A stretch of DNA of 64,000 bases from Candidatus Onthomorpha sp. (GTDB lineage: Bacteria; Bacteroidota; Bacteroidia; Bacteroidales; P3), in contig JAZRHI010000015.1 in the NCBI GenBank assembly GCA_045644685.1, forward strand, positions 76,095 through 140,094. Direction: 5' to 3'. Numbering within the stretch: the first letter of the stretch is position 1; the number at the start of each line of letters is the position of its first letter. Below the pieces are notes generated by a model. It was not told where the DNA came from. It made no database searches and saw only the letters and a list, made by a program, of their open reading frames with translations. Shown piece after piece: positions 1,012 to 58,660 of the stretch. A program made the translations under genes and the position numbers.

Positions 1012-1116
1012 AAAATTCTCTTAGCTTTTTTGGATTTTTCCTAAGAAAAAAAATATTTTCTCTAAGAGATAATTTTCTAAACCTTAGGTTTAAAAAGATA
1101 AATCTAAGACATAAAA
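1012..1116. repeat. 21-nt-phased CTWAG mini-array A (5 units)
   Basis: Cores CTTAG 1020-1024, CTAAG 1041-1045, CTAAG 1062-1066, CTTAG 1083-1087, CTAAG 1104-1108, spaced exactly 21 nt. A/T-tract flanks. Lies between the convergent ALDH and M16 genes and abuts hairpin 1117-1145. Confidence 0.9.
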
Positions 1117-1145
1117 AAAGGGAACGGCTAATTGCCATTCCCTTT
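1111..1145 (-). terminator. Intrinsic terminator of the M16 peptidase gene
   Basis: Stem GGGAA(C)GGC 1120-1128 pairs with GCC(A)TTCCC 1134-1142, loop TAATT. On the minus strand it is followed by a T-run (plus-strand A-run 1111-1119). Confidence 0.7.
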
Positions 1146-1164
1146 CAATCTATTAGTTTTCCAA

Positions 1165-4002
1165 TTATTTGCTTGGTTGCATTGCTGCTGGTTTCATAGA
1201 AACTCTTACATAGCCATCGTGTTTCAAATACTTAGTTGCAACGGCTTTAATGTCTTCTATTGTTAAAGCATTTACTGCTGCTGTGTATTCTTCCAATGTT
1301 TGCATTTCGTATCCGTAGAATTTAGAACCTACTATTTGTCCTAACCAGTAGCCATTCTTTTCCATTCTTCCTTTTCTCTCTAAGATAAGTTGTTCTTTTA
1401 CCTTATTAAGATCTGTTTCTGTTGGACCTTCTGCTATAATCTTGTCAAACACTTCAAATGTTGCGTTTGTAAGTTTATCAACTGTTGTTGGGTCGCAAGT
1501 ATAGTAACACATTGCAGTTGTTTTTGCTTGTGGGTATTTTTCATAGCTTAAAGAGAATGAAGGAGAGTATGTTCCACCTAATTCTTCGCGTATTGTTTCA
1601 GTTAATTTGATAGAACAAATGTTGTCTAATGCGTTTGTAGCAAGACGATCGTTCCAATCGAAATCGTTTACGAAAGTAAGAGTCATCAATCCCTTGTTTG
1701 CTTCTCCTGCATATACAGTTTCATCAACGATTCCTTTTGCAAATGCAGTTGAACGGTCTTTCCAATTTTCTGCTTTCTTTCCTTTTAATGAAGGAAGTCC
1801 ACCAATGTATTTTTCAATCAAAGGAAGCATTGTTTTTTCGTCAATGTTTCCAACGAAAGTGAATGTAAAGTCAGAAGCATCTGAGAATCTTTCTTTGAAT
1901 ATCTTTAACATTTTGTCAGCATTCAATTGTTTTAATTGAGCTTCTGTTGGAATCATGATTTGACGTTTGTCATTAGGATACATTGATTTGATCCATTTTT
2001 CTTGGAATGCAAATTCTGGCATATTTTTCACCATATTGATTTGAGTTTTCATCTTATCAATTTCGCTAGCCAAAACTTCTTTATCCATTCTTGGTGCAGT
2101 GAAGAATAAATAGATGTATTGTAATTGTGTTTCAAAGTCTTTTGGAGAACAACTTCCTTCAAGTACATCTTGTAATTCGCCTATTGAAGGTGTTACTCCA
2201 AACGATTTACCTTTCATAAACTTCATTAATTGGCTGTGATCATAGTTTCCTATACCGCTTCCATCAACTATGCTTGCTGCGAAAGAAACATTCATAATGT
2301 CTTTATCGTCATACATAGATGAACCACCGTTTGATTCTGCGTAAGTAAGGATTTCATCGTTTTTGTAGTTAGTTTTCTTAACGATTACTTTCGCTCCGTT
2401 TGATAAAACGTATTCTGTGTAGTCGAATTTTTCGTTCTTAGTTGTTGATTCTACTTTTCCGCCTTTTGGTTCTTGTGCTAAGAATGGTTCTGTTTTAACA
2501 TTATCAACCCAAGCTTTTGTTTTTGCAGTTTTACACTTTTCTATTAGTTTTAAAACTTTGTCTTCTGTTGGTACTTTAATACCTTTCTTTTCTGGCATAG
2601 AGATTGTGCAAACAAAGTTTTCTTCTGTTATCCATTTTCCTATCAAAGCGTTTACTTCTTCTAAGGTAATGTCTTCCATCATTGCTTTTGCCCATTTGTT
2701 TTCAATGATTGCACCTGGCATTGGAGTTTCTTCTAAGAAGTAATCAACTAATTCAGCTGCTATACGGCTACTTTCTGTTTTTGATTCTTCTTTTGCAGCT
2801 CTTTCATATCGTTCTAATAAAGATTCTTTCGCTCTATCTAATTCTGTTTGTAAGAATCCGTGTTGTTGTAGTCTTCTATTTTCAAGCATCATTGCTTCTA
2901 ATGCTTCTAATACTTTACCTTCTTTTGCAACAACGTACATTTGGTATGCTGCAACAGGACGTGCAAGGAATCCACCATAGCCTGCTCCTGCTTGCATATA
3001 AGGACAAGATTTCTTTTCACCAAGTTCTGATAAACGTTCATCGAACATAATTTCAAATAGTGAGTTTACTAAGTATTGTTCGCGATAATCTCCCCATGTT
3101 TTAACGGCTTTTGCTGGGTGTTTGTAGAACATTTGAATTTGAGTAGAGGTTGCTTCTTTGTCTGTCGCAACACATACAAGTGGTTCTTTGTTATTGTCAA
3201 TTGTGTAAACAGGTCTTTCCAATGGAGTGCAGTGTTTTGGAGTCATTGTAAAGTAATCAATTACTTTTTGTTCCATTTCGTCTGCGTCAAAGTCTCCTAC
3301 AACAATTATTGCCATGTTATCTGGTCTGTACCACTTTTGATAGAATCCTCTAATGTCTTCATATTTGAAGTTTTCAAGGTTTTCTAATGTTCCGATAGGA
3401 AGTCTTTCTGCGTATTTAGAACCTTTTAACATTGTTCCCCAAGTTTTAGCTCTTAATCTTTCGCTTCCTCCTTGGCTCATACGCCATTCTTCAATGATAA
3501 CGCCTCTTTCTTTGTCGATTTCTTCACCTGTCATCAACATTCCAGAAGCCCAACCATCAAGAATCTTTAATCCTATATCAAATAATCTTGAATTGTCTGT
3601 TGGAAGTGTTACCATGTAAACTGTTTGGTCGAATCCTGTGTAAGCATTTATTTCTCTACCGAATACGATTCCCTCTTTTTCAAGGTCATCAATCATTGTG
3701 TTTCCTGGGAAATGCTTTGTTCCATTGAATCCCATGTGTTCAGAGAAGTGTGCTAATCCAACTTCATTTGCTTCTTCTAAAACAGATCCAGCATTTACTG
3801 CAATTTGAAATTCTGCTCTGTTTGCAGGTTTGTTGTTAGCTCTTACGTAATAAGTAAGTCCGTTTGCTAATTTTCCTGTACGAACTTTACCATTTAATTT
3901 AATTTGCTCGTCAAGATTAACTTTTGCTTTCTTGTTTTGAGCAACGCCTGTGGTGCTAATTAACAAACACAAGGCCAAAATTGAAAAAATTCTACTTTTC
4001 AT
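1165..4002 (-). CDS. Secreted M16-family zinc metallopeptidase (insulinase/PqqL-like)
   Basis: 945 aa. Signal peptide MKSRIFSILALCLLISTTGVAQ. HxxEH zinc motif in LAHFSEHMGFNGT. ATG at 4002. Confidence 0.85.
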   Translation of the reverse strand: MKSRIFSILALCLLISTTGVAQNKKAKVNLDEQIKLNGKVRTGKLANGLTYYVRANNKPANRAEFQIAVNAGSVLEEANEVGLAHFSEHMGFNGTKHFPGNTMIDDLEKEGIVFGREINAYTGFDQTVYMVTLPTDNSRLFDIGLKILDGWASGMLMTGEEIDKERGVIIEEWRMSQGGSERLRAKTWGTMLKGSKYAERLPIGTLENLENFKYEDIRGFYQKWYRPDNMAIIVVGDFDADEMEQKVIDYFTMTPKHCTPLERPVYTIDNNKEPLVCVATDKEATSTQIQMFYKHPAKAVKTWGDYREQYLVNSLFEIMFDERLSELGEKKSCPYMQAGAGYGGFLARPVAAYQMYVVAKEGKVLEALEAMMLENRRLQQHGFLQTELDRAKESLLERYERAAKEESKTESSRIAAELVDYFLEETPMPGAIIENKWAKAMMEDITLEEVNALIGKWITEENFVCTISMPEKKGIKVPTEDKVLKLIEKCKTAKTKAWVDNVKTEPFLAQEPKGGKVESTTKNEKFDYTEYVLSNGAKVIVKKTNYKNDEILTYAESNGGSSMYDDKDIMNVSFAASIVDGSGIGNYDHSQLMKFMKGKSFGVTPSIGELQDVLEGSCSPKDFETQLQYIYLFFTAPRMDKEVLASEIDKMKTQINMVKNMPEFAFQEKWIKSMYPNDKRQIMIPTEAQLKQLNADKMLKIFKERFSDASDFTFTFVGNIDEKTMLPLIEKYIGGLPSLKGKKAENWKDRSTAFAKGIVDETVYAGEANKGLMTLTFVNDFDWNDRLATNALDNICSIKLTETIREELGGTYSPSFSLSYEKYPQAKTTAMCYYTCDPTTVDKLTNATFEVFDKIIAEGPTETDLNKVKEQLILERKGRMEKNGYWLGQIVGSKFYGYEMQTLEEYTAAVNALTIEDIKAVATKYLKHDGYVRVSMKPAAMQPSK

Positions 4003-4024
4003 ACTCTTTGTTATTTAGTTTTTA

Positions 4025-6266: not shown

Positions 6267-7661
6267 TTATTTTGAAATAATCCAATCTTCTTCTGTTGTC
6301 CACGTTTTTTTGATGACTATGTTTTTGTTGTAAATAAATACTTTTTCGCTTTCTTCCAGTGTGTTAAAGTTTGCTTTGTCCCATTGTTTGTTACAATTTT
6401 GGTCTATTGCAATTTTCGCTTTGTAAGTGCCTTCTTTGAGATATTTAAAGGTGATTGTGTTGGTGTTTTTCGGCATTTGTTCTTCTAAAACTATCTTTCC
6501 TGCCATGTTATATAAGTAACAAATATAGCAAGCATTGTTTGAAATTGAGTCTTTTATGTTTAGGGTTAGGCTTCCGTAATATTCTGGTGAAGAGTTATAG
6601 AATTTGTGTTTGTATTCTTTGTTTTTTTGATTGTAAATGTTGCTTATGCTATTTGCTTTTATGATTATTTCATGTTGTTTCGCTACATCTAAATTGCTAA
6701 TGAAAGAATAGATTGTGTCATTCGTTTTTGTGAAATTTACTTCCGTAGTGTCGCTGTCTTTTATCAAAAGGGCAGGGAAGGAGTCTGTGGAAAGGGTGTC
6801 TTTAAATACTAAATCGTAACGTCCTTTGAAAAAGTCGAGGGTGTCTTTTTCGTATTTATTGATATGAAATAAAGTATCCCTTTTTTCTTGCTTAGAAGGG
6901 TTTTGTAAATTCTCTGTTTTTTCTTCAACAAAGGCGGTGTAATAGAATTTTTGTTTTTGAAGTCTTGTTTTTGCTGTGGAGTCTGGAAGATAGGGTTTAA
7001 GGATTTCGTTAGAAAATCCAATACCTTCGTTCGCTAAGTCGTATATTTTGTTTTGGTTTTTATCGTCTAATATAAAGAGTTTATATTCTCCGTTTGCAAG
7101 GTTATGAAATCTGAAAACGCCATTGCTATCTGTCTTTGTCAAATAGTCAGATGGGTTTTTCTTTATGTAAGTTGTGTCGAAATTTGAATACAATAGGACA
7201 TATTTGTTTGGAATTGCTGTTAGCTCAAAGGCATCTAAAATTTTTCCTTCGTACCATAGCGTGTCAATATGGTCGCCTGTGGAAAAGGCAAAGGAGAATC
7301 CGTTTAGGCGATTGCCTTCATTGTTATCTTTTATGGCATTTGCAAAGTCTATTATATAGGTTGTGTTTTCTTTTAGCGAGTCTAAGCCTTTTATGTGTAT
7401 GCTTTTGAGGTTTGAGGTTATCTCCGGATTTGGTTTTATTTGAGGAGAAATCAATACATTCGTATTAGGATTTTCTAAAACAATGTATTCGTTAAACTTT
7501 ATTTCGATTTCGTTTCCTTTAAAGTTTATACTGTTCTGATAAGGCTTGCTATCAACAAACACAGGTGGCTGATTGTCTTTTGGACCTCCGCTTGGAGTTA
7601 CAATCTTTGCGCAAGAAAATATCAGAAAACTTGTAAAAAATATCGCAACTAATCTATTCAT
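6267..7661 (-). CDS. Lipoprotein with bacterial Ig-like (Big_5/SbsA-type) domain
   Basis: 464 aa. Lipoprotein signal MNRLVAIFFTSFLIFSC. The SGGPKDNQPPVFVDSKP... segment is typical of Big_5 lipoproteins. Confidence 0.6.
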   Translation of the reverse strand: MNRLVAIFFTSFLIFSCAKIVTPSGGPKDNQPPVFVDSKPYQNSINFKGNEIEIKFNEYIVLENPNTNVLISPQIKPNPEITSNLKSIHIKGLDSLKENTTYIIDFANAIKDNNEGNRLNGFSFAFSTGDHIDTLWYEGKILDAFELTAIPNKYVLLYSNFDTTYIKKNPSDYLTKTDSNGVFRFHNLANGEYKLFILDDKNQNKIYDLANEGIGFSNEILKPYLPDSTAKTRLQKQKFYYTAFVEEKTENLQNPSKQEKRDTLFHINKYEKDTLDFFKGRYDLVFKDTLSTDSFPALLIKDSDTTEVNFTKTNDTIYSFISNLDVAKQHEIIIKANSISNIYNQKNKEYKHKFYNSSPEYYGSLTLNIKDSISNNACYICYLYNMAGKIVLEEQMPKNTNTITFKYLKEGTYKAKIAIDQNCNKQWDKANFNTLEESEKVFIYNKNIVIKKTWTTEEDWIISK

Positions 7662-7684: not shown

Positions 7685-7768
7685 TTCGTTTTCTTAGGTT
7701 TAGAAAAATATTTCTTAGGTTTAGAAAATTATTCCTAAGGATTAAAAAAATAACTCTTAGCTTTATTT
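7685..7768. repeat. 21-nt-phased CTWAG mini-array B (4 units)
   Basis: Cores 7693-7697, 7714-7718, 7735-7739, 7756-7760 (21-nt spacing). The fourth unit is the left arm of the 18-bp hairpin, whose right arm carries CTAAG 7782-7786. Confidence 0.92.
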
Positions 7769-7793
7769 GAGCAATATAAAGCTAAGAGTTATT
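7741..7793 (-). terminator. Strong intrinsic terminator of nhaD built from two inverted repeat units
   Basis: Perfect 18-bp stem, 7749-7766 with 7776-7793, 9-nt loop. T-run follows on the minus strand (plus-strand A-run 7744-7750). Confidence 0.8.
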
Positions 7794-7816
7794 GTAATTA
7801 TAATATAGTTTTTAAA

Positions 7817-9106
7817 CTATGCTGCGTGGAAAAATAATGTGCTCATTAAATAGAATGTTCCTGCACCTGCAAGGTATCCTATCAAAGCCCAAAGTGTGAT
7901 TTTCTTCAAATACCAAATGAAGTCTATTTTTTCCATTCCCATAACTGCAACACCTGCTGCAGAACCAATGATTAACAAACTTCCTCCTGTACCTGCGCAG
8001 TATGCAAGGCCTTCCCAGAATGCTCCATCAACTGCAAAATTTCCTATTGCTTCAATTGGATACATTCCCATAGCGGCTGCAACCAATGGAACGTTGTCTA
8101 TGATAGATGAAAGCACACCTATAACTACGTTAATCACATAAACGTTTCCTAATTTATCAAGAGCTCCTGCTAATTGACCAAGATGACCTGCTTCATTCAA
8201 GCAACTAACTGCCATAAGAATACCTAAGAAGAATAAAACAGAAGGAACATCAACTTTTTGTATGATTGCAGTAACGTTTAATCTTGAATAATTTGTTGGA
8301 TTGTTCTTGTGCATAATTTCAGTCGTTATCCAAAGAATTCCTAATCCGAATAAAATTCCAAGATATGGAGGAAGGTGAGTTATAGTCTTAAAGAAAGGAA
8401 CGAATAACAATAATCCGACACCCATAATTAAGATTATCAAACTTTGTTTTCTTGTAACGCTTGAAGTACCTTCCGATTCTACTTTTTCAGGTCTTTCAAG
8501 TTTTCCTTTCATTGTCGTACCTATAATTGCAACTGGCACAAGTAATGAAACCAATGAAGGAATGAATGTTTCTAATATAATGTTTCCTGCTGTGATGTTA
8601 CCTTTTATCCAAAGCATAATAGTAGTTACGTCTCCGATTGGCGACCATGCACCACCGGCATTCGCAGCAAGAATTACCATACCTGCAAAAAACCAACGTG
8701 TGTTTTTGTCTCCAACAAGTTTTCTAAGCAATGCACACATAACAATCGAAGTTGTTAGATTGTCAAGCACAGCTGACATGAAGAATGTAAGGATAGAAAT
8801 AATCCACAACAACTTTCTTTTGCTTGTTGTTGTGATTTTGTCTGTGATAATTGAGAAACCGTCGTGTTTATCTACGATTTCAACAATTGTCATCGCACCT
8901 AAGAGGAAGAAAAGTATTTCTGCTGTTTCCCCAAGGTGATGAATCAAAGCGCCGTCTTTGATTCCTGGTCCGAATAGAGCAAATACTGCCCATATTACTG
9001 CTGCTAATAATACTGCTGTTGCAGATTTGTTAATTTTTAACGGGTGTTCCAACGCTATCATGGCATATCCTATGACAAAGATAGCAATCATCAGTCCGAA
9101 ATACAT
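7817..9106 (-). CDS. nhaD: NhaD/ArsB-superfamily Na+/H+ antiporter
   Basis: 429 aa, about 11-12 TM helices. Contains the FFLLGAMTIVEIVDKHDGF segment characteristic of NhaD-type antiporters. Confidence 0.7.
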   Translation of the reverse strand: MYFGLMIAIFVIGYAMIALEHPLKINKSATAVLLAAVIWAVFALFGPGIKDGALIHHLGETAEILFFLLGAMTIVEIVDKHDGFSIITDKITTTSKRKLLWIISILTFFMSAVLDNLTTSIVMCALLRKLVGDKNTRWFFAGMVILAANAGGAWSPIGDVTTIMLWIKGNITAGNIILETFIPSLVSLLVPVAIIGTTMKGKLERPEKVESEGTSSVTRKQSLIILIMGVGLLLFVPFFKTITHLPPYLGILFGLGILWITTEIMHKNNPTNYSRLNVTAIIQKVDVPSVLFFLGILMAVSCLNEAGHLGQLAGALDKLGNVYVINVVIGVLSSIIDNVPLVAAAMGMYPIEAIGNFAVDGAFWEGLAYCAGTGGSLLIIGSAAGVAVMGMEKIDFIWYLKKITLWALIGYLAGAGTFYLMSTLFFHAA

Positions 9107-12535: not shown

Positions 12536-13248
12536 TATTTCTTTTTTGAAAATAATGAGGTGTAGTATTTATAGTGCCATATAATATGTATAAGGGCGAT
12601 AATCGTCATGGCAATTCCAAATTCAACGTGCCATTTCAAAAAGTCTCTATACCAATCCATGCAGAAACCATAGTTTATCTGTAATGCCAAAATAAATCCC
12701 AATAGACAAGAAACTAAGAATGTTAAAAGAAGAATTACATTCCATAGTTTTCTGTGAGTAAGCTTTTTTATCTTGTTTGTTTTGACTAAGATATAGGTTG
12801 TAAGGTAAGCAATCAAAACGGCAATCGTTATGGCAATTATGCGATATGGCTTCTTTGATTTTTTTTCCTTAGGTTTAGAAAAATTTTCCTTAGGAATATT
12901 TTTTTCTTCCTTAGGAATAATTTTTTCTTCCTTAGAGATATTTTTTTCTGTCTTTACAACGTCTTTTTCTTGTGTAGAAATTGTTGTTTTCTTTGGTGTG
13001 ATTTCTATTTCTTTTTTTGTTTCAATCGGTGCAACCTCTGTTTGAGTTTCTGTTGTTGGCTCTTGGCTTTGGGTTAATCCGTTGTCGCAAAATGAATCTT
13101 CGTTTTCATCAATAAATCTGCCACACTCGCCTAAACAATTATACTTTTCGCCAAATGGACATTGTGCTTCAAGCGATAGAAATGCGAAAGAAAATAACGC
13201 AAAGCATAAAAGCGATAATAATCTCTTTGATTTAGTATTGGTTTTCAT
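12535..13248 (-). CDS. Hypothetical membrane protein (signal peptide, Cys-rich module, K/E-rich heptad linker, C-terminal TM helices)
   Basis: 237 aa. MKTNTKSKRLLSLLCFALFSFAFLSLEA signal and a CPFGEKYNCLGECGRFIDENEDSFCDNG module. The linker ISKEEKIIPKEEKNIPKENFSKPKEKK is encoded by mini-array C. Three hydrophobic helices at the C-terminus. Confidence 0.6.
   Translation of the reverse strand: MKTNTKSKRLLSLLCFALFSFAFLSLEAQCPFGEKYNCLGECGRFIDENEDSFCDNGLTQSQEPTTETQTEVAPIETKKEIEITPKKTTISTQEKDVVKTEKNISKEEKIIPKEEKNIPKENFSKPKEKKSKKPYRIIAITIAVLIAYLTTYILVKTNKIKKLTHRKLWNVILLLTFLVSCLLGFILALQINYGFCMDWYRDFLKWHVEFGIAMTIIALIHIIWHYKYYTSLFSKKK
12860..12943. repeat. 21-nt-phased CTWAG mini-array C (4 units) inside a CDS
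   Basis: CTTAG at 12868-12872, 12889-12893, 12910-12914 and 12931-12935. Read in frame on the minus strand (CCT AAG = Pro-Lys) as heptads of the 237-aa membrane protein. Confidence 0.9.
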
Positions 13249-14970: not shown

Positions 14971-14981
14971 AAAGCAATAAT

Positions 14982-15218
14982 ATGAAATTAAGTATAGTAA
15001 GTCCAGAAGAAACTCTTTACGAAGGGGAAGTGAAATCGGTAAAGATGCAGGGAATTGATGGGAAATTCCAAGTGTTAAACAATCATGCTCCTTTGATTTC
15101 GGCTTTAAGCAAAGGCGAAATCAAGATAGAGGAAGAGTCTGGCGAGCAAAAAACTTTTGAAATTAACAGCGGATTGGTAGAACTTTCTAAGAACGAGATT
15201 CAGATTTTAGCTCAATAG
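14982..15218 (+). CDS. atpC: F1 ATP synthase subunit epsilon (short form, beta-sandwich only)
   Basis: 78 aa directly after atpD. MKLSIVSPEETLYEGEVKSVKMQGIDGKFQVLNNHAPLIS is the epsilon N-domain. Confidence 0.85.
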   Translation: MKLSIVSPEETLYEGEVKSVKMQGIDGKFQVLNNHAPLISALSKGEIKIEEESGEQKTFEINSGLVELSKNEIQILAQ

Positions 15219-15381
15219 GTTGAGCATATAGAGATAGACAATCTTCACAAAGACATTCAGTCCATTTTGATTGGATGTCTTTTTTACTTTCTATACTTAA
15301 ATGATATTTTGTGCAAAAACAATTTTCATCATGCGAACATACAAAGTGTTTTCCGCATCTTGGACAAATAACTTCTCTCAT
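15187..15381 (-). CDS. Cysteine-rich CWC-family small protein
   Basis: 64 aa with CPRCG...C...CFC...C.C..C cysteine spacing. 6 nt downstream of the sigma-54 activator gene. Overlaps the atpC 3' end by 32 nt in convergent orientation. Confidence 0.55.
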   Translation of the reverse strand: MREVICPRCGKHFVCSHDENCFCTKYHLSIESKKDIQSKWTECLCEDCLSLYAQPIELKSESRS

Positions 15382-15387
15382 AATATT

Positions 15388-19041: not shown

Positions 19042-19076
19042 GAAGAAGAAAAATAAAACATTCTTTTCAGAAATCA

Positions 19077-19118
19077 AAAGCCCAAAAGAATTTTGTCTTT
19101 TGGGCTTTTATTTTTTTT
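19077..19118 (+). terminator. Intrinsic terminator of the methylmalonyl-CoA mutase gene
   Basis: 13-bp stem AAAGCCCAAAAGA 19077-19089 with TCTTTTGGGCTTT 19096-19108, 6-nt loop, then TATTTTTTTT. Confidence 0.85.
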
Positions 19119-19134
19119 ACTCTTTGTTTCCGTA

Positions 19135-19197
19135 AAATAATCCTAAGAAATAAAAAATTAAACCTAAGGAAGAAAAAAATATTCCTTAGGAAAAAAA
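19135..19197. repeat. 21-nt-phased CTWAG mini-array D (3 units)
   Basis: CTAAG 19143-19147, CTAAG 19164-19168, CTTAG 19185-19189. Starts about 17 nt after the mutase terminator. A degenerate CTTTG sits in register at 19122-19126. Confidence 0.85.
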
Positions 19198-19353
19198 ACT
19201 TCAAAAAAGTATGTGCATATATAAACAATAGACAATCTAATAATTTCCTTTGAAATGATAGCGAAAGGTTGGGCTAACGCACGCGGTCATAAACACCCCG
19301 AAACAGTAAATATTGTTATGAAATAACCAACCATTCCATAAACGAAATAAAAA

Positions 19354-24367: not shown

Positions 24368-25257
24368 GCATTGCAAAAAACGCCTAACTTATATAAATTA
24401 AAAATAAAAAGACTTGGATTTTTTTTGGCAAGAAGGCTTAACATAAGTCTTCTTGTCATTTTAAAGAATAGGGCATATAATCCCACTAAATGTAGCCTTT
24501 CAAGACGGTTGTAAACACTTACAATTTTAATCCTTAGGATTATTTTTTTATTTCTTAGGTTTAATTTTTTATTTCTTAGGTTTAGAAAAATATTTCTTAG
24601 GTTTATTACAGCGTTTTCATTAGAAGAAATAAAATCCTCAAACTTCTTTAAACCTAAGTGTTCAACAGGATTGTCTATATTTAAGAAAGAAAATCCAATT
24701 TCTTCAAAATCACACTTAAATAAGGTGTCTTCGTGTCCGTAACCTTTGATGTCTTCACGAAAACGTATGGAAGAAAAAACCGATTTACGAATACAAAAGT
24801 TATTAGTTGTAAACATATCTTTGTTTTTCAAACCTTTGTTTGCTTCAATCAATGTTCCATACTTCCAATGTAGTTCATAGCCTTTTGGACATTTAGATTT
24901 TTCGCAATAAACCGTACCTCCTCTTACCAAATCCTTAGTTTCTATTTCGTTTAAATAACGTTTCAAGAAATCATCTCTTACAATCTTGCTGTCGCCGTCA
25001 AGAAATATTAAAATATCTCCCTTAGCCTCGTCAGCCAAAAGGTTTCTTATTCGTGAGCGACCAAGGTTTTCTTTCAGCTCTCTATAATCCACCTTGTCAA
25101 ATTGTGCAATAGCTTTGTTGTCTTCGCATTTTATTGGAGAACAATCGTCAAAGACTAAAATTTCATAATCACAACTTAATTCCTTTGCTTGCTTTACTAA
25201 GTCGTTTACTAAATTTACGCAATTTTCTTGATAGATAGGAATGAGTATAGAAAGCAT
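24364..25257 (-). CDS. Family-2 glycosyltransferase; the 3' quarter runs through mini-array E
   Basis: MLSILIPIYQENCVN... with FDD and a DxD-like FLDGDS motif. C-terminal NLRNIFLNLRNKKLNLRNKKIILRIKIV is array-encoded, so the true C-terminus is uncertain. Confidence 0.7.
   Translation of the reverse strand: MLSILIPIYQENCVNLVNDLVKQAKELSCDYEILVFDDCSPIKCEDNKAIAQFDKVDYRELKENLGRSRIRNLLADEAKGDILIFLDGDSKIVRDDFLKRYLNEIETKDLVRGGTVYCEKSKCPKGYELHWKYGTLIEANKGLKNKDMFTTNNFCIRKSVFSSIRFREDIKGYGHEDTLFKCDFEEIGFSFLNIDNPVEHLGLKKFEDFISSNENAVINLRNIFLNLRNKKLNLRNKKIILRIKIVSVYNRLERLHLVGLYALFFKMTRRLMLSLLAKKNPSLFIFNLYKLGVFCNA
24525..24608. repeat. 21-nt-phased CTWAG mini-array E (4 units) inside the GT2 ORF
   Basis: CTTAG at 24533-24537, 24554-24558, 24575-24579 and 24596-24600. 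Positions 24572-24605 are identical to 7690-7723. Confidence 0.92.
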
Positions 25258-28211: not shown

Positions 28212-28295
28212 TATTTTTCCTTAGAAAAAAAGCATATTTTCTAAGAATTAAGTTTTTTTATTTAAGGTTTGTGATTTTTTTTCTTAGGATTAAAT
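28212..28295. repeat. 21-nt-phased CTWAG mini-array F (3 canonical units plus 1 degenerate)
   Basis: CTTAG 28220-28224, CTAAG 28241-28245, degenerate TTAAG 28262-28266, CTTAG 28283-28287. Fills the space between divergent -7 boxes at 28203-28210 (minus) and 28305-28312 (plus). Confidence 0.85.
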
Positions 28296-36384: not shown

Positions 36385-37113
36385 ATGAATAGTGCGGATA
36401 GTGTAGTAATTATACCTACTTATAATGAGAAAGAAAATATTGAAAACATTATAAGGTATGTATTTTCATTAGAAAAGGTATTTCATATCTTGATTGTGGA
36501 AGATAATTCTCCTGATGGAACTGCCGATATCGTTAAAAGGCTTATGCAAGAGTTTCCAGAAAGATTATTTATCGAAGAAAGAAAAGGTAAATTAGGCTTA
36601 GGAACAGCCTATTTGCATGGCTTCAAATGGGCAATCGCAAGAAAATATGACTATATCTATGAAATGGATGCCGATTTTTCGCATCCACCAAAAGATTTGC
36701 TTAATTTGTACAAAGCATGTCTTGAAGGCGCCGATATGGCAATAGGCTCTCGTTATGTAGATGGTAAGATTTCGGTTGTGAATTGGCCAATGGGAAGATT
36801 GATGATGTCATATTATGCTTCTAAATACGTGCAATTAATTACGGGAATGAAGATTGGCGATACTACGGCTGGCTTTGCGTGTTATAAACGTGCGCTTTTA
36901 GAACGCATAAACTTTGAAAAAGTAAAATTTGTTGGCTATGCTTTCCAAATAGAAATGAAATATACTGCATTTAAATTAGGATTTAAACTAAAAGAAGTGC
37001 CAATTATATTTACGGATAGGGTACTTGGAACAAGCAAAATGAACATGAAAATCTTTAAAGAAGCCTTTTTCGGTGTCTTTTCTTTAAGGTTTAGAAACTG
37101 GTCTAAATATTAG
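36385..37113 (+). CDS. Polyprenol-phosphate mannosyltransferase-like GT2 (Dpm1/Ppm1 type)
   Basis: 242 aa. VIIPTYNEKENI..., VEDNSPDGT, MDADFSHPP. The last codons (SLRFRN) lie in degenerate mini-array J. Confidence 0.75.
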   Translation: MNSADSVVIIPTYNEKENIENIIRYVFSLEKVFHILIVEDNSPDGTADIVKRLMQEFPERLFIEERKGKLGLGTAYLHGFKWAIARKYDYIYEMDADFSHPPKDLLNLYKACLEGADMAIGSRYVDGKISVVNWPMGRLMMSYYASKYVQLITGMKIGDTTAGFACYKRALLERINFEKVKFVGYAFQIEMKYTAFKLGFKLKEVPIIFTDRVLGTSKMNMKIFKEAFFGVFSLRFRNWSKY

Positions 37114-37199
37114 AAAAATAAGTCAAAGAAAAAATAAAATAAATCAAAGGAATAAAAAAATAAAACAAAGAAAAAATGAAAAAAAGCTTAGGAATATTT
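37076..37199. repeat. Degenerate 21-nt-phased array J (about 6 units) bridging two CDSs
   Basis: In-register pentamers CTAAA 37103-37107, CAAAG 37124-37128, 37145-37149 and 37166-37170, CTTAG 37187-37191. A TCTTTAAGGTTTAGAAA unit at 37081-37097 is about 2 nt off register. Confidence 0.55.
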
Positions 37200-39308
37200 T
37201 TTGCTCTCTTTATAGTGCTATCAAGCATTGGAGCATTCGCACAAAAAGGTCTAATAGACATAAAAAAACTTCAAGATAGAGAATACTATCCTTCGGGAAT
37301 TTATGGACTACAATTCGTAGGCGAAAAAGGAAAGTATGCTTACACAAAAACAGGTCAAGAGTTAATCATAGGAGATGCCAAGTCTGAAAAAACAGTTCTT
37401 ACATCAGCTGATTTAAACGAAAGCCTAAAACGTTTCATTGGCTTAGAATTTATTTCAGAAACCGAATTTGCATTTTTGAGTGCAGACAATAAAACAATCT
37501 ATCACTATAATATAGAAACAAAGCAAATGACTCCTATCTGCAACATTAAAGAAGGAGCAGAAAATCTTGAATTAGATTTAAAGAATGGAAGTGCAGCATA
37601 CACAATAAACGGAAACGTTTGGTTTTCTACAAGAGGTAAAGAACCAAAACAATTAACCACTGACGGAGGTAACGGAATTACTTACGGCGTTGCGGTACAT
37701 AGAAATGAATTTGGTATAGAAAAAGGATTTTTCCTTTCAAACGATGCAAGCAAATTAGCATTCTATAGAATGGATGAAAGCATGGTTGAAGAATATCCAT
37801 TAGTTAATACAGCCGTTCGCGAAGCCGTTCCTACGCCAATACGTTATCCTATGGCGGGAATGAAGTCTCACGAAGTTAAAGTATTGGTTTACGATTCAAA
37901 AACCGACAAAACAGTTGAATTAAACACAAGAAAAGATAATTCCCTTGAAGAAAGAGAAGCATATCTTACTAATTTGACTTGGAATCCAGAAGGAACAATG
38001 CTTTATATCCAAAAATTAAATCGCAAACAAAACAATGTAGAATTGATAGCCTATGATGTAGAAAATGGAAATCCAGCAAAAACACTATTCTCTCAAAGCA
38101 ATGAAAAATACGTTGAGCCGGAATCTCCAATTTTCTTTTTACCTAACAACAGCCAACAATTCATTTATTTAAGCGAAGCAGACGGATTTAATCACGCTTA
38201 CTTATATAATACAGACGGAACTTTAATTTCTCAACTTACATCTGGTAATTGGATGATTAACTCAATAGAAGGATTTAACAAAAAAGCAACAGAATTTTAC
38301 TTCTACGCAACAAAAGATTCTCCATTGGAGCAAAACTTATACGCATACAACTTTAAATCAAAGAAAATACGTCGTTGCTCTCCTGAAAAGGGAACACACA
38401 GTGTCGCATTTAACACTAACGGAACACTTTTCTTAGATACATATACAAGCTCTACTGAACCAAGAAGAGTTGCTTTGTATGACAATAAAGGAAAGCAAGT
38501 AAAAGAAATCTATAAGTCAGAAAACCCATGGGCAAACTTAGACAAACCAGAAATAGACGTGTTTACAATCAAAGCAAAAGACGGTACAGATTTATATGCT
38601 CGTATGATAAAACCATTGAACTTTGACCCAAATAAAAAATACCCTGTTATCGTTTACGTTTATGGCGGACCACACGCGCAACTTATTACAGAAAGTTGGC
38701 TTTTTGGTGCAAACAATTTCTTTCTTTTCCTTGCCCAACAAGGATACATAGTTTGGACAGTTGATAGTAGAGGATCAGCAAACAGAGGCTTTGAATTTGA
38801 AAGTGCAATATGGAGAAATTGTGGAAGCATTGAAGTAAGCGACCAAATGGATGGCGTAAATTATTTAAAATCTCTTCCATATGTAGATTCAGAACGCATA
38901 GGCGTTGATGGTTGGTCTTACGGTGGATTTATGACTATTTCATTAAAATTGAAGAATCCAGGAGTATTTAAAACTGCAACCGCAGGAGGACCTGTTATTG
39001 ATTGGAAATGGTACGAGATTATGTACGGAGAAAGATATATGTCTTCACCTGCGGATAATAAAGAGGGATATGAAAAGTCATCTTTGTTAAATTACGCAGA
39101 CCAATTAGAAGGAAAACTACTTGTAATACATGGAGCGCAAGACCCAACCGTAGTAATGCAACACTCATTGGAGTTTATCAATAAATGTATCAAAGCAGGA
39201 AAACAAGTAGATTACTTTATCTATCCAGATCACGAACACAACGTAAGAGGAAAAGATAGAATACATTTATATGAGAAGATTTACCAATACCATAAAGAAA
39301 ACTTATAA
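37176..39308 (+). CDS. Dipeptidyl-peptidase IV-type S9B serine peptidase
   Basis: 710 aa. Signal peptide, beta-propeller N-half, and catalytic GWSYGG nucleophile elbow with a downstream Asp/His region. Confidence 0.85.
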   Translation: MKKSLGIFFALFIVLSSIGAFAQKGLIDIKKLQDREYYPSGIYGLQFVGEKGKYAYTKTGQELIIGDAKSEKTVLTSADLNESLKRFIGLEFISETEFAFLSADNKTIYHYNIETKQMTPICNIKEGAENLELDLKNGSAAYTINGNVWFSTRGKEPKQLTTDGGNGITYGVAVHRNEFGIEKGFFLSNDASKLAFYRMDESMVEEYPLVNTAVREAVPTPIRYPMAGMKSHEVKVLVYDSKTDKTVELNTRKDNSLEEREAYLTNLTWNPEGTMLYIQKLNRKQNNVELIAYDVENGNPAKTLFSQSNEKYVEPESPIFFLPNNSQQFIYLSEADGFNHAYLYNTDGTLISQLTSGNWMINSIEGFNKKATEFYFYATKDSPLEQNLYAYNFKSKKIRRCSPEKGTHSVAFNTNGTLFLDTYTSSTEPRRVALYDNKGKQVKEIYKSENPWANLDKPEIDVFTIKAKDGTDLYARMIKPLNFDPNKKYPVIVYVYGGPHAQLITESWLFGANNFFLFLAQQGYIVWTVDSRGSANRGFEFESAIWRNCGSIEVSDQMDGVNYLKSLPYVDSERIGVDGWSYGGFMTISLKLKNPGVFKTATAGGPVIDWKWYEIMYGERYMSSPADNKEGYEKSSLLNYADQLEGKLLVIHGAQDPTVVMQHSLEFINKCIKAGKQVDYFIYPDHEHNVRGKDRIHLYEKIYQYHKENL

Positions 39309-45221: not shown

Positions 45222-45305
45222 ATTTTTCTCTTAGGTTTATTAAAATAAAGCTAAGGAATAATTTTCTAAACCTAAGAAATAATTTTCTATCTCTTAGGTT
45301 TAAAA
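45222..45305. repeat. 21-nt-phased CTWAG mini-array G (4 units, mixed orientation)
   Basis: CTTAG 45230-45234, CTAAG 45251-45255, CTAAG 45272-45276, CTTAG 45293-45297. Units 2-3 are reverse complements of the canonical unit. The nearest core is about 25 nt upstream of the rtcB ATG. Confidence 0.92.
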
Positions 45306-50033: not shown

Positions 50034-50035
50034 AT

Positions 50036-52912: not shown

Positions 52913-52975
52913 TCTATTTCCTTAGAGATAATGGAAAAATCCTTAGGAATAATAAAATAATCCTTAGAAAAAATG
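52913..52975. repeat. 21-nt-phased CTWAG mini-array H (3 units)
   Basis: CTTAG at 52921-52925, 52942-52946 and 52963-52967. Lies between the rpmB terminator and the thioesterase ATG (52973). Confidence 0.85.
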
Positions 52976-55066: not shown

Positions 55067-58000
55067 ATGGAAGACTTAAAAGAAATATTAAAAGATACAT
55101 TAGGAGTTATTTCGGAAGACAAACTTAAATCTACAAGAGAGTATGTTCAACAATATATTAGCTTGCGTTTAGCGGCTATGGGAGTAGAGATGAGCGCAGA
55201 CAACGTAGATGAAACAGACAAAAATTTCATGCGAATCCTAAAAGGTTTATTGTCTAACTATAAAGAAAGAGAAGCACTTTTTGATAACTATTTATGTCCT
55301 GCCGATGCAAGAATACAAGACTTTTTGAATAGATATTTTGCTTCTGTGAAAAGCGTTCCGGATATAAAGGTCCCTTTAAGAACATTCACATTAGACACCT
55401 ATGGAATCGCAAGAGAACTATCTTTACCACAAGGAGCGACCGAATATAAATCAACATACGTTACCTCTTATAGGGTAAAACAAGGAGTATTGCATAATCC
55501 TAAAAACGATAGAAGAACAACAAAAGGCGTATTCCACGTTGCAGAAGGAGGATTACCTATTCCAAACGACAAAAAAGCAGTTCCAATAGAAGTGGCAAAA
55601 TACATATTCTATAGAGCCTTTGCAGAAACAGGAGATGTTATGGAATTACCATACACAGCACAAACAGATACTCCAATAAAATGTATGGTTTCTTTATTGT
55701 TAAAGCCAACAATTTCTCCGGAAGTAGAAGGCGTTAGCAAAAGAAAGAATATGGAGATACGATTCTTTACACCGGGCTCATTAGTAAGCAACTTAGACTT
55801 TGTTGAAAGTATATTTGGAAACGGCGGAAGCCCATATCACATTAGTAATGACTCAGCATTAGATGTCGATCACTGGACAGGACATACAGGATGTATAATA
55901 TTAGCACCACAACTTACACAATTAACTAAAAAAGAATGTGGATTACTACACATCTCACAAGCAACAGAACGTCAGAAGAAAGACGGAATGTGTTGGGAAA
56001 ATGAAAATGAACTATACAACGACGGTCAATCATTTAAACTTTGCGTAAGAACAGACGAAGGCGTAATAGCAACAGTTATAGCAGACAACTACTTCGGATA
56101 TTCCAAAAAAGAAGTAAAGACAATGATGAGTTACTCCTCTAATATCTTTGGAAACACAGAAGAAGAGCATGCAGGAGGAGCCTTAGTCTTTCCAGGGTAT
56201 AACCAAGGCGACACTTACTTTGCAAATCCTATAAAAGTGCGCAACACGTTTGAACACGTAAAGAAGAATTGTCAATCATTCATAGACTTTAAACCAGAAG
56301 GATACGGAATAGATAAAAATTATCCATACATATATTACCTACCAGAAAACACAAACTTTTACGTTCCTACACAGGAAATAAAATGGAAGAACGACAAAGG
56401 CGAACACAAATTAAAATTACTACCAAATAGAATATACATATTGCCAAACGGAAGTAAATTCCGCATGGAAAGTTATTCAGGAGCCTTAAATTACAGATTG
56501 ATTGAAATACTTGGAGACGGAATGTTCTGTCATAAACCATGCACTGTATCAGGTGGAGGAAAATCAGAAATATCCAAATCAATATCTGACGCAATACTTG
56601 GTGGACCATTCTTTGTTAGCGACTTTGAAAGCGACTTTGCAAAAGTAGAAGAAATAATTAACTACGACTATTCAAAACGTTATGAAAACCATGACGCAAT
56701 ACCATATAGCCGTAGCTTCTTATGCAACCTGCGCTCAATGGGTTCAGTTATCAAACTTTTAACCCCAAGTCCAGAATACACAGAAAGCTATAACGAATGG
56801 TTAAGAAGCTTACCACAATACATAAAAGGTATAGCCTTCATCATAAAACGATTCTACAAAGAAGAGTGGGGTGAAGATTGGAAACGACACTTTAATGTTG
56901 ATATCTTAAACGGAACACCAGGAAACGAATTAAAATTTGAAGACAAAAAGATATTTGCACGTTATCTAAGAGTTGGATTTGAAGAAAACGGAACATGGAG
57001 AACATTTAAGTTAAGACAAGACTTCGTACACTCAGATAAAATACAAATGGAGGACGATATCAGTGCATCAACCGTAGTTCCAACAAAACTACTTAGCAAC
57101 TTAGGAAAAGCAGAAAAACAATTAAGTGTTAAAATAGTAGAAAACTGTGAATATCGTTTCTTCCAACGTCCAGATGATGCAATAATAAGAGGATACGATA
57201 AAAAAGCAGAAGCAGACCTTGCAACACCAAATACCTTTATCTCTAACTTTGAACCACTAACCCAAGAAGACGCAGTAGAAATGGTAGAAGACGTAATCAA
57301 CTTCGACCAATTCACACAACCAATGCGTAACCTGATAGAAGAAATGGTAGATGATAAAGAATCAAAATACTTTGTATCATCAGCAAATCCAAGAATAGTA
57401 AATGGAAAGCCTTCAAAGAACGTAAGATACTTGCAAACAAGAAACGACTTGATAATGCCAGCAGAAAAATACATAGCAGAAGTCGGAATGAGATTAGCAA
57501 GACGCATACCAGAAAGCGAACCATTATATGTACCAGTAAATGCAGTATTACCAGGTAGAAGAAACAACAGAGCAGAAGAAGGAATACCACCATTAGCTGT
57601 TTACAACCCAATTCACTATCAAGAATTACCAGAACTATTTATGGATTTCGTTTGCTCACTTACTGGAAAGAGCCCTTCTACAACAGGAGCAGGCTCAGAA
57701 GGTGCATTAACAAAAGGGCCATTCAATGCTTTATGCGCAGTAACAGACTTAAATAACGCTCTAATCTCGTTTATCTTAACAGGATACGACGGATTCACAA
57801 CCCCAGCGGGCTACATAGGAAGCAAATACCGTGTAGACCACGATATAAGCTTGTTGATACCAGAAATTTGGTCAAGATTAACACCAGAAGAAAGAGATCC
57901 AAAATTCTTAATAACCAACAACTTCTTTGAAAAAATAGAAAACTTCTCTTACGAAGGCGAAGAAATAAAAGCATCAGTCTTAGGATATAGAGTAACCGAA

Positions 58001-58531
58001 AAATTCATCCATAATTACTTTGGAAGAGTATTCGAAAATCCTAATGTGGTATTCACAAACGAAATGTTGAAGCCAGAACTTCAAAGTATGCAAGAATATG
58101 TTGATGGAATAAAGAATATAACAGAAAACCAATCAAGAGTAGCTAAGATGTACTTTGAAGATGGTAGCGTAGAAGGAGCAATACCTCCACTAAAAGCAAT
58201 TCTACACATAATGGCGTACGGAGAATACGAAGGAAAGACATTGTCTTCTCCTGAAATAAGAGAAATGTTCACACAAGAATACTTATTAAAGAGTAATTGG
58301 TATGCAGAACGTTTAAGAAACAAACATGTAAGCGATATAGCACTATGGCAATCACACCAAAAATATATCAGTGACTTGTTAAACGTAGCCATAAACTTAC
58401 CAGAAGAAAAGAAACAAGAAATAAAACAAATTCTTGTCAAAACAAAAGAAAACTTAAAACATATCAAATCCCAAGATTACTACGATAAATTAGTCGGAAC
58501 ATTAGGGAAAGACGATTTGTATAAAGGTTAA
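55067..58531 (+). CDS. Large conserved cytosolic protein, candidate PPi-dependent phosphoenolpyruvate carboxykinase (EC 4.1.1.38-like)
   Basis: Clean 1154-aa ORF with its own -7-like box and terminator. Size matches the ~130 kDa PPi-PEPCK family. P-loop-like CTVSGGGKSE. The functional call rests on memory of the family, not an alignment. Confidence 0.45.
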   Translation: MEDLKEILKDTLGVISEDKLKSTREYVQQYISLRLAAMGVEMSADNVDETDKNFMRILKGLLSNYKEREALFDNYLCPADARIQDFLNRYFASVKSVPDIKVPLRTFTLDTYGIARELSLPQGATEYKSTYVTSYRVKQGVLHNPKNDRRTTKGVFHVAEGGLPIPNDKKAVPIEVAKYIFYRAFAETGDVMELPYTAQTDTPIKCMVSLLLKPTISPEVEGVSKRKNMEIRFFTPGSLVSNLDFVESIFGNGGSPYHISNDSALDVDHWTGHTGCIILAPQLTQLTKKECGLLHISQATERQKKDGMCWENENELYNDGQSFKLCVRTDEGVIATVIADNYFGYSKKEVKTMMSYSSNIFGNTEEEHAGGALVFPGYNQGDTYFANPIKVRNTFEHVKKNCQSFIDFKPEGYGIDKNYPYIYYLPENTNFYVPTQEIKWKNDKGEHKLKLLPNRIYILPNGSKFRMESYSGALNYRLIEILGDGMFCHKPCTVSGGGKSEISKSISDAILGGPFFVSDFESDFAKVEEIINYDYSKRYENHDAIPYSRSFLCNLRSMGSVIKLLTPSPEYTESYNEWLRSLPQYIKGIAFIIKRFYKEEWGEDWKRHFNVDILNGTPGNELKFEDKKIFARYLRVGFEENGTWRTFKLRQDFVHSDKIQMEDDISASTVVPTKLLSNLGKAEKQLSVKIVENCEYRFFQRPDDAIIRGYDKKAEADLATPNTFISNFEPLTQEDAVEMVEDVINFDQFTQPMRNLIEEMVDDKESKYFVSSANPRIVNGKPSKNVRYLQTRNDLIMPAEKYIAEVGMRLARRIPESEPLYVPVNAVLPGRRNNRAEEGIPPLAVYNPIHYQELPELFMDFVCSLTGKSPSTTGAGSEGALTKGPFNALCAVTDLNNALISFILTGYDGFTTPAGYIGSKYRVDHDISLLIPEIWSRLTPEERDPKFLITNNFFEKIENFSYEGEEIKASVLGYRVTEKFIHNYFGRVFENPNVVFTNEMLKPELQSMQEYVDGIKNITENQSRVAKMYFEDGSVEGAIPPLKAILHIMAYGEYEGKTLSSPEIREMFTQEYLLKSNWYAERLRNKHVSDIALWQSHQKYISDLLNVAINLPEEKKQEIKQILVKTKENLKHIKSQDYYDKLVGTLGKDDLYKG

Positions 58532-58537
58532 AAACAG

Positions 58538-58567
58538 AAAAGCGGTTGATTTCAACCGCTTTTTTTA
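58538..58567 (+). terminator. Intrinsic terminator of the 1154-aa gene
   Basis: AGCGGTTG 58541-58548 pairs with CAACCGCT 58553-58560, 4-nt loop, then TTTTTTT. Confidence 0.85.
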
Positions 58568-58576
58568 TTTGTGTTA

Positions 58577-58660
58577 ATTTTTCTCTAAGAAATAATCCAT
58601 TTTCTCTTAGGAATATTTTTCTAATCCTTAGCTTTATTAAATTATTCCTTAGACTTATTT
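58577..58660. repeat. 21-nt-phased CTWAG mini-array I (4 units)
   Basis: CTAAG 58585-58589, then CTTAG at 58606-58610, 58627-58631 and 58648-58652. Starts 10 nt after terminator 58538-58567 and ends at the stop codon of the convergent arginase-fold gene. Confidence 0.9.

Follow-up and report, generated by a model that had tools for sequence, protein, structure and literature searches.

The DNA considered here, 64,000 nucleotides of contig JAZRHI010000015.1 (positions 76,095 to 140,094 of the forward strand) from an assembly of Candidatus Onthomorpha sp. (GCA_045644685.1), is referred to throughout as the window. It carries ten arrays of a short palindromic unit, about one array per 6 kb, and within each array the cores of the three to seven units follow one another at a period of exactly 21 nt. 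The arrays probably serve as binding sites for a protein (a reading to which we give a probability of roughly 60%), and they would be rows of cooperative dimer sites, since the unit is a 15-bp dyad, the register is exact, single sites are few, orthologous arrays persist among relatives, and their cores change unit by unit. A reading based on protein is also favored because the alternatives that dispense with one fail in turn, whether they invoke curvature, hairpins or the flanks of mobile elements. That they amount to a layer lying between transcription units and serving to structure the nucleoid, insulate or silence, after the fashion of bacterial interspersed mosaic elements (BIMEs) with IHF or gyrase, seems to us an even bet.

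Phased arrays of a palindromic unit

The window is rich in A and T (33.5% G+C), and the pentamer CTWAG, the core of most units, occurs in it 164 times, compared with a mean of 126.6 in 200 dinucleotide-preserving shuffles. Thirty-four of the 164 fall in eight chains of 3-5 cores with a spacing of exactly 21 nt, and there is also one chain of two, at locus F. Not one of the 200 shuffles produced a chain of three or more, and chains of two arose in them 0.28 times per shuffle on average, so an initial annotation of the window, made from its letters alone, was right to judge such runs far beyond chance. It was also right about the exactness of the spacing. Core-to-core distances peak solely at 21 nt (24 pairs), 42 nt (16) and 63 nt (8), and adjacent pairs at 17-20 or 22-24 nt number zero. 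A pattern of four cores matched seven times in the window and never in 100 shuffles. A scan that presupposed no core at all (any GC-containing 5-mer, in either orientation, with at least three recurrences) gave 19 hits at period 21 and none at any other period from 14 to 24. Taken together, periods other than 21 show no signal anywhere between 14 and 30 nt. Outside the arrays, CTWAG is found 129 times, with about 127 expected, in keeping with the earlier rough figure of one per 500 nt as the background.

A position weight matrix (PWM) built from the units and run over the window turned up no additional array and hardly any isolated unit. Isolated high-scoring units occur at the background level, and units are found almost solely in runs of at least three. 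Since the scan adds no array, the ten loci of the initial annotation constitute the complete list for the window. Nine of them, A through I, lie just where they had been placed, and the tenth, J, which had been called degenerate, proves to be a genuine array of seven in-phase units, three with CAAAG and one with CTTAG. What that annotation lacked was the translation of some arrays in frame (C, E and part of J), the palindromy of the unit, and the spread of the arrays through a clade in which the core takes on dialects.

The unit is a degenerate 15-bp site of dyad symmetry, TAWWYCT-W-AGRWWTA, after which comes a linker of about 6 bp of A and T. When the 34 units are aligned on their cores without regard to orientation, the correlation between the resulting PWM and its reverse complement is r = 0.93. 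The symmetry reaches well past the core used to find the units: position -7 is T in 29 of the 34 and +7 is A in 33, while +6 is T in 29. Position -3 is a pyrimidine in 33 and +3 is G or A in 31 (G in 19, A in 12), which makes the previously offered YCTWAGG a fair consensus. A 15-bp palindrome plus an A/T linker describes the unit better than an oriented 21-mer does, and the seeming presence of two unit orientations within one array is dyad symmetry with differing choices of A or T in each half. The most frequent half-sites are TAAACCT, TATTCCT, TATTTCT and TAATCCT. Conserved blocks center at about +/-2 and +/-6.5, a pattern we read, from the alignment, as the likely footprint of a dimer seated in two successive major grooves.

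In about 70% of units the linker lies within a run of at least four A or T, and these runs are themselves in helical phase. Outside the core, units of one array are only about 58% identical to each other (0.58), and still the register is never shifted by even one base, despite spacers made of homopolymeric A and T that are prone to insertion and deletion. Invariant spacing amid such divergent and slippery sequence indicates selection on helical register.

Spread and core dialects among relatives

The proteins encoded in the window are closest to those of uncultured Bacteroidales metagenome-assembled genomes (MAGs), with homologues of about 60% identity belonging to Candidatus Onthomorpha, and metagenome-assembly contigs 92.6-98.6% identical to the window were recovered. 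Relatives were surveyed by alignment of a glycosyltransferase, one genome per species, which gave 80 loci of about 20 kb (related loci are designated below by L and a number). Those with at least 55% glycosyltransferase identity, comprising Onthomorpha and MAGs from ruminant, yak and chicken gut, show strong enrichment of period 21 over periods 20 and 22. In the other Bacteroidota loci of the 80, about 60 in number, the period is all but missing. A pattern scan of metagenome contigs yielded 120 hits, 113 of them unrelated perfect tandem repeats and seven true members of the family. Six of these seven (four intergenic arrays, one over a gene end and one within a gene) sit on contigs without similarity to the window, and the arrays are therefore not peculiar to its neighborhood.

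In viral contigs, plasmids and phages the family was not encountered. Among viral contigs, a generic scan for phased cores matched mostly unrelated perfect tandem repeats, and a more specific pattern found no family member. BLAST searches with the arrays, run on plasmids and phages, returned either no match or chance similarity to AT-rich DNA, and no Rfam family matched the 64-kb window at its gathering threshold. The Rfam, plasmid and phage searches produced no meaningful match. Nor did a search of the literature on 21-bp or CCTAAGG repeats, Onthomorpha and Bacteroidales minisatellites bring up a description of such arrays.

The core differs by lineage. In the window and its close relatives (L001, L203, L206) it is CTWAG, which accounts for 34 of about 47 units in the window lineage. 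L123 has a mix of CTWAG, CAAAG and CATAG; L002 and L124-L130 have CAAAG/CTTTG (AAAACAAAGAAATA); L133 has CAAAG and CGAAG; L135, L136 and L140 have GAAACAAAGAAAC; L137-L139 (42-45% G+C) and L154 (35%) have AAACGSCGTTT; and L141 and L142 have TTCWGAA. All of these lineages have the 21-bp period in common, together with a flanking half-site rich in A and T (WAAAC). Sublineages may also differ in how dense or how conserved their arrays are, to go by three loci whose 16-20 kb hold hardly any exact phased chains or none at all: L129 (78% identity in the family-2 glycosyltransferase), which has a CATAG core variant, and L131 and L132 (70-71%), in the first of which array F is present, mixed and decayed. 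Two other repeats noticed in the survey lie outside the 21-nt family: three 22-nt units of AAAATCCGGTG in L132 (15960-16030) and a long 7-nt tandem repeat, GGTCTAC, in L164 (7845-8025).

Orthologous arrays persist to about 70% protein identity, their lengths changing by exactly 21 bp. Whole units are gained or lost, as the initial annotation had proposed comparing among relatives (e.g., proteins of 297 and 290 amino acids that differ by one unit in array E). Every close relative has orthologous arrays, and no clean pair of filled and empty sites was available among them. Array F occupies the same spacer from the window to relatives at 71% glycosyltransferase identity, mostly with four units (three in L125), and the last core stands 9 nt before the same -7 promoter box, or 8 nt in L131. 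Within that constant frame the cores have changed. They read CTAAG / CTTAA / CTTAG / CTAAG in the window, CAAAG / CTTAG / CTTAG / CTAAA in L123 and CAAAG / CAAAG / CTTTG / CAAAG in L124; the CAAAG/CTTTG form holds in L002 and L124-L128, and a mixture is found in L123 and L131. In the window and in L124 alike, unit 3 is on the opposite strand, so that the one-base difference respects the orientation of each unit. Similarly, in L203 the terminal unit of array D reads CTAAG, where the window has CAAAG. Four or five units of the old dialect are left in the window, in arrays J and D, and J is best read as an array of the CAAAG dialect that was left over or never converted. CAAAG, the more widely distributed of the dialects, is for that reason probably the ancestral one.

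Array E, which lies within a family-2 glycosyltransferase gene, allows the birth of an array to be followed. At its position, homologues of 64% identity or less have ordinary, nonrepetitive sequence (NLKKLYANEEFKHQLENLKMIKA). Two CAAAG units are present at 70-71% identity, and at 78-84% there is a CTAAG with two or three CAAAG units (NLRNIFL-NQRNKKI-IQRIKI). L123 has CTAAG, CAAAG, CAAAG and CTTAG; L203 has three CTAAG units and the window four. The array formed over existing coding sequence of similar length, with no clean insertion, and the protein has since varied in length by exactly seven residues (290 vs 297). As the cores switched, NQR became NLR in two or three of the repeats, in parallel with the intergenic arrays. 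A change from Q to L tells us that the pressure acts on DNA rather than protein, and that it can override conservation at the protein level. In the lineages that have array E, no spacer is left after the glycosyltransferase gene, which overlaps the convergent gene for a SpoU methylase. L135 and L137 do have a spacer after the glycosyltransferase gene, and there an array sits in the spacer. Perhaps this reflects a positional requirement, or perhaps it is coincidence, given how common arrays are.

The ten loci and their surroundings

Ordinary chromosomal housekeeping genes fill the window. Their products include ribosomal proteins S16 and L28, RimM, YidC, the ATP synthase beta subunit, methylmalonyl-CoA mutase, GuaA, enolase, a MurA-like enzyme, UvrD, glycosyltransferases and peptidases. 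As had been said of the window, no transposase, cas gene or gene for a REP-associated tyrosine transposase (RAYT) is among them, nor is a rep gene, and no restriction-modification methyltransferase or endonuclease gene is named among them. A scan for tRNA genes in the window found none. Intergenic DNA makes up about 7% of the window, and about half of the spacers of at least 100 nt hold an array: two of three convergent, two of four divergent and three of seven tandem spacers. A preference for one class of spacer is rejected by these proportions. Three arrays touch coding sequence, C and E lying inside genes and J over two gene ends. Arrays A, D and I start within about 20 nt of strong intrinsic terminators.

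Array A (1012..1116) lies between convergent genes and has five units, with cores starting at 1020, 1041, 1062, 1083 and 1104 (CTTAG, CTAAG, CTAAG, CTTAG, CTAAG). It begins inside the T-tail of a minus-strand terminator, 1146-1116. Array B (7685..7768; four units, cores 7693 to 7756) falls between a terminator hairpin and the promoter of the gene at 6267-7661(-). The sequence TACCTTTG appears on the minus strand 18 nt past its last core. It recurs at array F, and we take it to match the Bacteroidetes -7 promoter consensus, TAnnTTTG. The terminator-like hairpin at 7745-7795, 3' of the gene at 7817-9106(-), has a stem made of unit 4 of array B and an inverted extra copy at 7784 (AATAACTCTTAGCTTTAT ... 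ATAAAGCTAAGAGTTATT); the two are 28 nt apart and so off the 21-nt phase. A unit of the array appears, from this pairing, to have been co-opted as the stem of a terminator.

Array C (12860..12943; four units, cores 12868 to 12931) lies inside the open reading frame (ORF) 12535-13248(-), where it is read in frame as ISKEEKIIPKEEKNIPKENFSKPKEKK, a low-complexity linker preceding a membrane segment of a membrane protein. Array D (19114..19197), in a tandem spacer, has three CTWAG units with cores 19143 to 19185 and an in-phase CTTTG at 19122, and it stands directly 3' of the terminator 19076-19109(+). Next to it is a leader of 250 nt (19190-19439) ahead of the gene for a pyridoxal phosphate enzyme of Cys/Met metabolism (19440-20627), with a strong terminator-like hairpin at 19350-19389(+). 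The leader matches no Rfam family at the gathering threshold; by its length and hairpin, it could be a candidate attenuator or riboswitch. Between arrays C and D, the convergent spacer of 417 nt (14971-15387) that separates atpD from a sigma-54 activator gene is without an array. It has a terminator-like hairpin at 15249-15282(+) and, being unusually long for so compact a genome, could be home to a small RNA or small gene.

Array E (24525..24608; four units, cores 24533 to 24596) is translated as NLRNIFL NLRNKKL NLRNKKI ILRIKIV, in a frame different from that of array C. Its host gene, 24364-25257(-), and the convergent SpoU-type methyltransferase gene, 23618-24367(+), overlap by 4 nt at their 3' ends. 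Array F (28212..28295; four units) has cores at 28220, 28241 and 28283 and a decayed TTAAG at 28262. It occupies the divergent spacer between a family-4 glycosyltransferase gene (-) and guaA (+), and the box at 9 nt from its last core is the second instance of TACCTTTG, the core lying upstream. Array J (37074..37220) has in-phase units from 37082 to 37208 with cores CTTTA, CTAAA, CAAAG (three times), CTTAG and CTTTA, and it spans the last codons of the gene at 36385-37113, a 62-nt spacer, and the first codons of the gene at 37176-39308.

Array G (45222..45305; four units, cores 45230 to 45293) sits in a divergent spacer, upstream of rtcB on one side (25 nt from its start codon, 45205, minus strand) and, at about 230 nt, upstream of a small gene for a 69-amino-acid protein of AbrB/MazE/SpoVT type (PF04014; 45534-45743(+)), whose stop overlaps the start of an acyltransferase gene. 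Units 3 and 4 of array G are able to pair as a 20-bp hairpin. The RtcB RNA ligase gene (43943-45205) is convergent to that of a Fic/DOC-domain protein with an N-terminus of the BRO-N DNA-binding type (43023-43889). Array H (52913..52975; three units, cores 52921 to 52963) lies between the L28 gene (PF00830; 52607-52846(+)) and a thioesterase gene, the ATG of which is 5 nt past the last core. The L28 gene and that of the AbrB/MazE/SpoVT-type protein are two small genes that fall below the 80-amino-acid cut-off of the ORF list. Array I (58577..58660; four units, cores 58585 to 58648) is between convergent genes, its first core 20 nt past the terminator 58536-58565(+).

Some other proteins of the region may be mentioned. 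A protein of 702 amino acids without a Pfam match is followed, after a gap of 2 nt, by a homologue of the 37-kDa nucleoid-associated protein (NA37/YejK family, PF04245), together at 47925-51079. Two large proteins, of 1154 (55067-58531) and 905 amino acids (31368-34085), have no significant Pfam domain, and the position of the latter is kept across the clade (L001, L002, L203).

Explanations of the arrays

If the arrays are bound by protein, each would be a row of 3-7 operator-like sites with their centers two helical turns apart, read by a dimeric protein that binds DNA in a sequence-specific manner and has its gene elsewhere in the genome, one dimer per unit. Each dimer would lie in two successive major grooves, with neighbors on the same face of the helix and touching, which is why only runs of at least three would be stably occupied; the near-absence of single units is as one would expect of cooperative occupancy. 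The outcome would be short nucleoprotein filaments spaced along the chromosome, mostly between transcription units, and these might act as the structuring, insulating or silencing layer considered at the outset, comparable as well to what a sequence-specific nucleoid protein provides. Sites and protein would co-evolve, each lineage acquiring a core dialect of its own as old sites were converted in place. The initial annotation had offered a cooperative oligomer on one helix face as one possibility, and it is the best fit to the dyad symmetry, to the invariant spacing of so divergent a sequence, and to the switching of cores in place, though the binder itself is something we infer.

The geometry has precedents. 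Center-to-center spacings of about 21 bp are familiar from plasmid iterons (P1, R6K, pPS10), from paired 18-bp ARG boxes 3 bp apart, from LytTR sites (a 9-bp repeat and a 12-bp spacer), and from pSK41, in which ParR binds four parC repeats of 20 bp. In them, two to seven units stand two helical turns apart, as in the arrays, and are bound cooperatively on one face, as the arrays would be. Such operators and iterons, however, occupy one or a few loci beside the gene or replicon they control, unlike a family with ten loci in 64 kb of housekeeping DNA, and both iterons and LytTR sites are direct repeats without dyad symmetry. The arrays are thus not iterons: the phase fits, but the units are dyad-symmetric, the context is that of housekeeping genes, there is no rep gene in the window, and no plasmid matches. 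An apparent likeness to IHF, Fis and Hin-hix sites holds for one dialect only.

Several considerations weigh against binding by such a protein. The genes of the window offer no obvious candidate for the binder. The AbrB/MazE-type gene near array G, which codes for the sole DNA binder close by, was considered, and proximity is its only link. Arrays adjoin a strictly defined terminator in only 6 of 42 cases across the clade, so the placement at terminators or roadblocks suggested by the initial annotation, true of arrays A, D and I and apparent by eye in the window for A, B, D, H and I, is not general. Distances from array to promoter vary (9 nt at F, 18 nt at B). Spacers of all three classes (convergent, divergent, tandem) hold arrays about equally often, and some arrays lie within genes besides, with no evident function specific to a locus, which would fit a nonadaptive drive too. 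The birth of array E over coding sequence is not easily explained by selection for a chromosomal function. Finally, all the related loci except the six short metagenome contigs represent one genomic neighborhood, and the density across whole genomes is an extrapolation from it.

The strongest of the rivals, which we nevertheless consider unlikely, holds that the arrays are a neutral or self-propagating dispersed minisatellite, arising by slippage from chance proto-sites and made uniform across loci by short-patch gene conversion, with no partner in trans and no function. One would then expect arrays wherever they are tolerated, and they do occur in about half of the longer spacers, whatever the class of spacer, and in those parts of genes that tolerate them, with gain and loss of whole units and with an array born in a coding region. 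Against this, flanks of about 58% identity make a poor substrate for slippage or conversion, yet the phase is perfect; the dyad symmetry of the unit goes unexplained; orthologous arrays are stable across deep divergence; and a uniform, genome-wide change of one base in the core would need massive ectopic conversion between units of 21 bp.

One described element of this kind is BrickBuilt of Porphyromonas gingivalis, a 23-nt minisatellite inside a MITE (miniature inverted-repeat transposable element), with 1-23 units that mismatch by 0-11% within an element, at 19 loci per genome, all of them intergenic, and with "leader" and "tail" segments that have small inverted-repeat ends (PMC4596501). 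It too is of the Bacteroidales, a spacer-free tandem repeat of about two helical turns, intergenic at many loci and variable in unit number. The arrays differ in being 3-7 divergent palindromes at about one per 6 kb, some of them coding, with no common flanks. The 150-nt flanks of the ten arrays, compared all against all, share only chance matches of 10-15 nt and two imperfect ones of 20-22 nt. The one motif they have in common is the promoter box, and they lack terminal inverted repeats as well as any leader or tail, which sets the arrays apart from MITEs and BrickBuilt and, with the absence of a mobilizing gene among those of the window, speaks against a self-propagating element. Rickettsia palindromic elements (RPE), which are dispersed and can lie in frame in protein-coding genes, are single insertions of 100-150 bp, and mycobacterial interspersed repetitive units (MIRUs), which vary among strains by whole units, have units of 46-101 bp. 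Neither is a phased palindrome array or has core dialects.

Somewhat less probable still is a role akin to that of the DNA uptake sequences (DUS) of Neisseriaceae and the uptake signal sequences (USS) of Pasteurellaceae. By analogy, the arrays would be tags of self recognized by a surface or periplasmic DNA receptor, biased uptake and recombination would spread them, and dialects would follow the receptor. Such a scheme would account, without any function at individual loci, for the density of the arrays, their presence in all spacer types and in coding frames, the birth of an array by substitution, and the replacement of dialects. In Neisseriaceae, the DUS motif is uniform within a species and differs among related species (PMC3630211), and the arrays behave in parallel, with a motif uniform in a species and dialects replaced in place at orthologous positions. 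The likeness extends to a dispersed, over-represented motif with a conserved sub-core, and to tolerance within coding sequence, and it would extend to co-evolution of receptor and motif. Known uptake signals, however, are single motifs of 9-12 nt in thousands of copies, tied to natural transformation, and not phased arrays; in the window, isolated units are almost absent, and units come almost solely in phased runs of at least three. To our knowledge, moreover, no uptake sequence has been described in Bacteroidota.

Slightly behind this, and likewise improbable, comes the idea that the arrays are operators of a global transcription regulator or silencer that polymerizes from them over promoters, like Fur, CodY or H-NS. 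Arrays B and F do overlap the region just upstream of -7 boxes, the register of F with its box being conserved across species, and arrays G, H and J end within 25 nt of start codons or overlap them. But A and I lie between convergent genes where there is no promoter, C and E lie inside genes, and the neighboring genes have no common function and stand at varying distances from their promoters to the arrays. The units are not themselves Bacteroidetes promoters, as inspection shows at least one mismatch to the -7 box TAnnTTTG, and their dialects differ.

A purely structural element, either bent DNA or a hairpin or cruciform of the repetitive extragenic palindromic (REP) type, with no specific protein, is very unlikely. 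Its attractions are the A/T tracts of the linkers, in helical phase, and the 20-bp hairpin of array G (single-stranded folding z = -4.6). Curvature, which the initial annotation had raised, was predicted with a dinucleotide wedge model, which gave 141 degrees for a phased A6 positive control. By that model the arrays are predicted to bend 34 degrees on average, as against 32-39 degrees for composition-matched shuffles and 31 for the window background, and intrinsically bent DNA is rejected on those grounds. A consistent hairpin or RNA structure is rejected as well, in that the other nine arrays fold with z from -2.05 to +0.2 and no Rfam family matches. Structure alone, in any case, cannot explain core dialects across a genome. 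The REP sequences and BIMEs of enterobacteria and pseudomonads, whose REPINs are mobilized by RAYT transposases and whose binders are IHF, gyrase and Pol I, do resemble the arrays in some ways: they are short, species-specific extragenic repeats numbering in the hundreds, in small arrays often 3' of genes, made of palindromic units in either orientation, and with a proposed role in the nucleoid or its topology. REP sequences, however, are GC-rich hairpin palindromes of 20-40 nt in alternating orientation with variable linkers; the arrays are AT-rich, mostly do not fold, keep a strict 21-bp phase, occur also in genes (C and E in frame, J over two gene ends) and have no RAYT gene in the window. 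They are no more CRISPR than REP, as units are contiguous but for 6-bp A/T linkers and come 3-7 to an array, with no cas gene in the window. The initial annotation had set aside CRISPR, MITEs and REP, and with reason, for the arrays lack at least one defining feature of each named repeat class against which they were tested.

Least probable of all are targets of a restriction-modification system or orphan methyltransferase of the CTNAG or CCTNAGG class, a link that the palindromic core of the window lineage and the shift of core specificity among lineages might bring to mind, but which is at odds with CTWAG being neither avoided nor enriched outside the arrays, with a commonest dialect, CAAAG, that is not palindromic, with conservation out to +/-7, beyond any such site, and with the lack of a suitable methyltransferase or endonuclease gene in the window.

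Binding by a cooperative dimer thus remains the preferred reading of the arrays. A bolder version of it, which we hold to be rather doubtful, is that they belong to a clade-specific, chromatin-like system, so far undescribed, in which hundreds of phased palindrome arrays have as their reader a sequence-specific DNA-binding protein that evolves fast, sites and protein changing together across the genome. This would be a bacterial analogue of a sequence-specific nucleoid organizer, or else a "self barcode" of the genome, and it would stand apart from REP/RAYT, MITEs, CRISPR, iterons and uptake sequences.

Dispersed bacterial intergenic repeats are a known category, and an operator geometry of 21 bp is known as well. 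What is new is the combination: phased palindrome arrays at about one per 6 kb throughout a clade, with dialects switched in place and with tolerance of coding sequence. Families of dispersed repeats are among the least understood parts of bacterial genomes, and this one has unusually clean rules, namely a 15-bp palindrome, an exact register of two turns, and runs of 3-7 units at roughly one array per 6 kb. A change of core, unit by unit, in orthologous arrays, even at a cost in amino acids, is normally the mark of a protein and a DNA site evolving together. If the partner protein is found, it would reveal a new sequence-specific layer of chromosome organization or self-recognition in an abundant though uncultured group of Bacteroidales of the animal gut, and with it a tractable natural experiment, in which a protein has changed specificity together with its binding sites, several hundred of them or as many as a thousand or more. 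The dialects, for their part, would be of practical use as markers of lineage, both in binning and in the tracking of strains.

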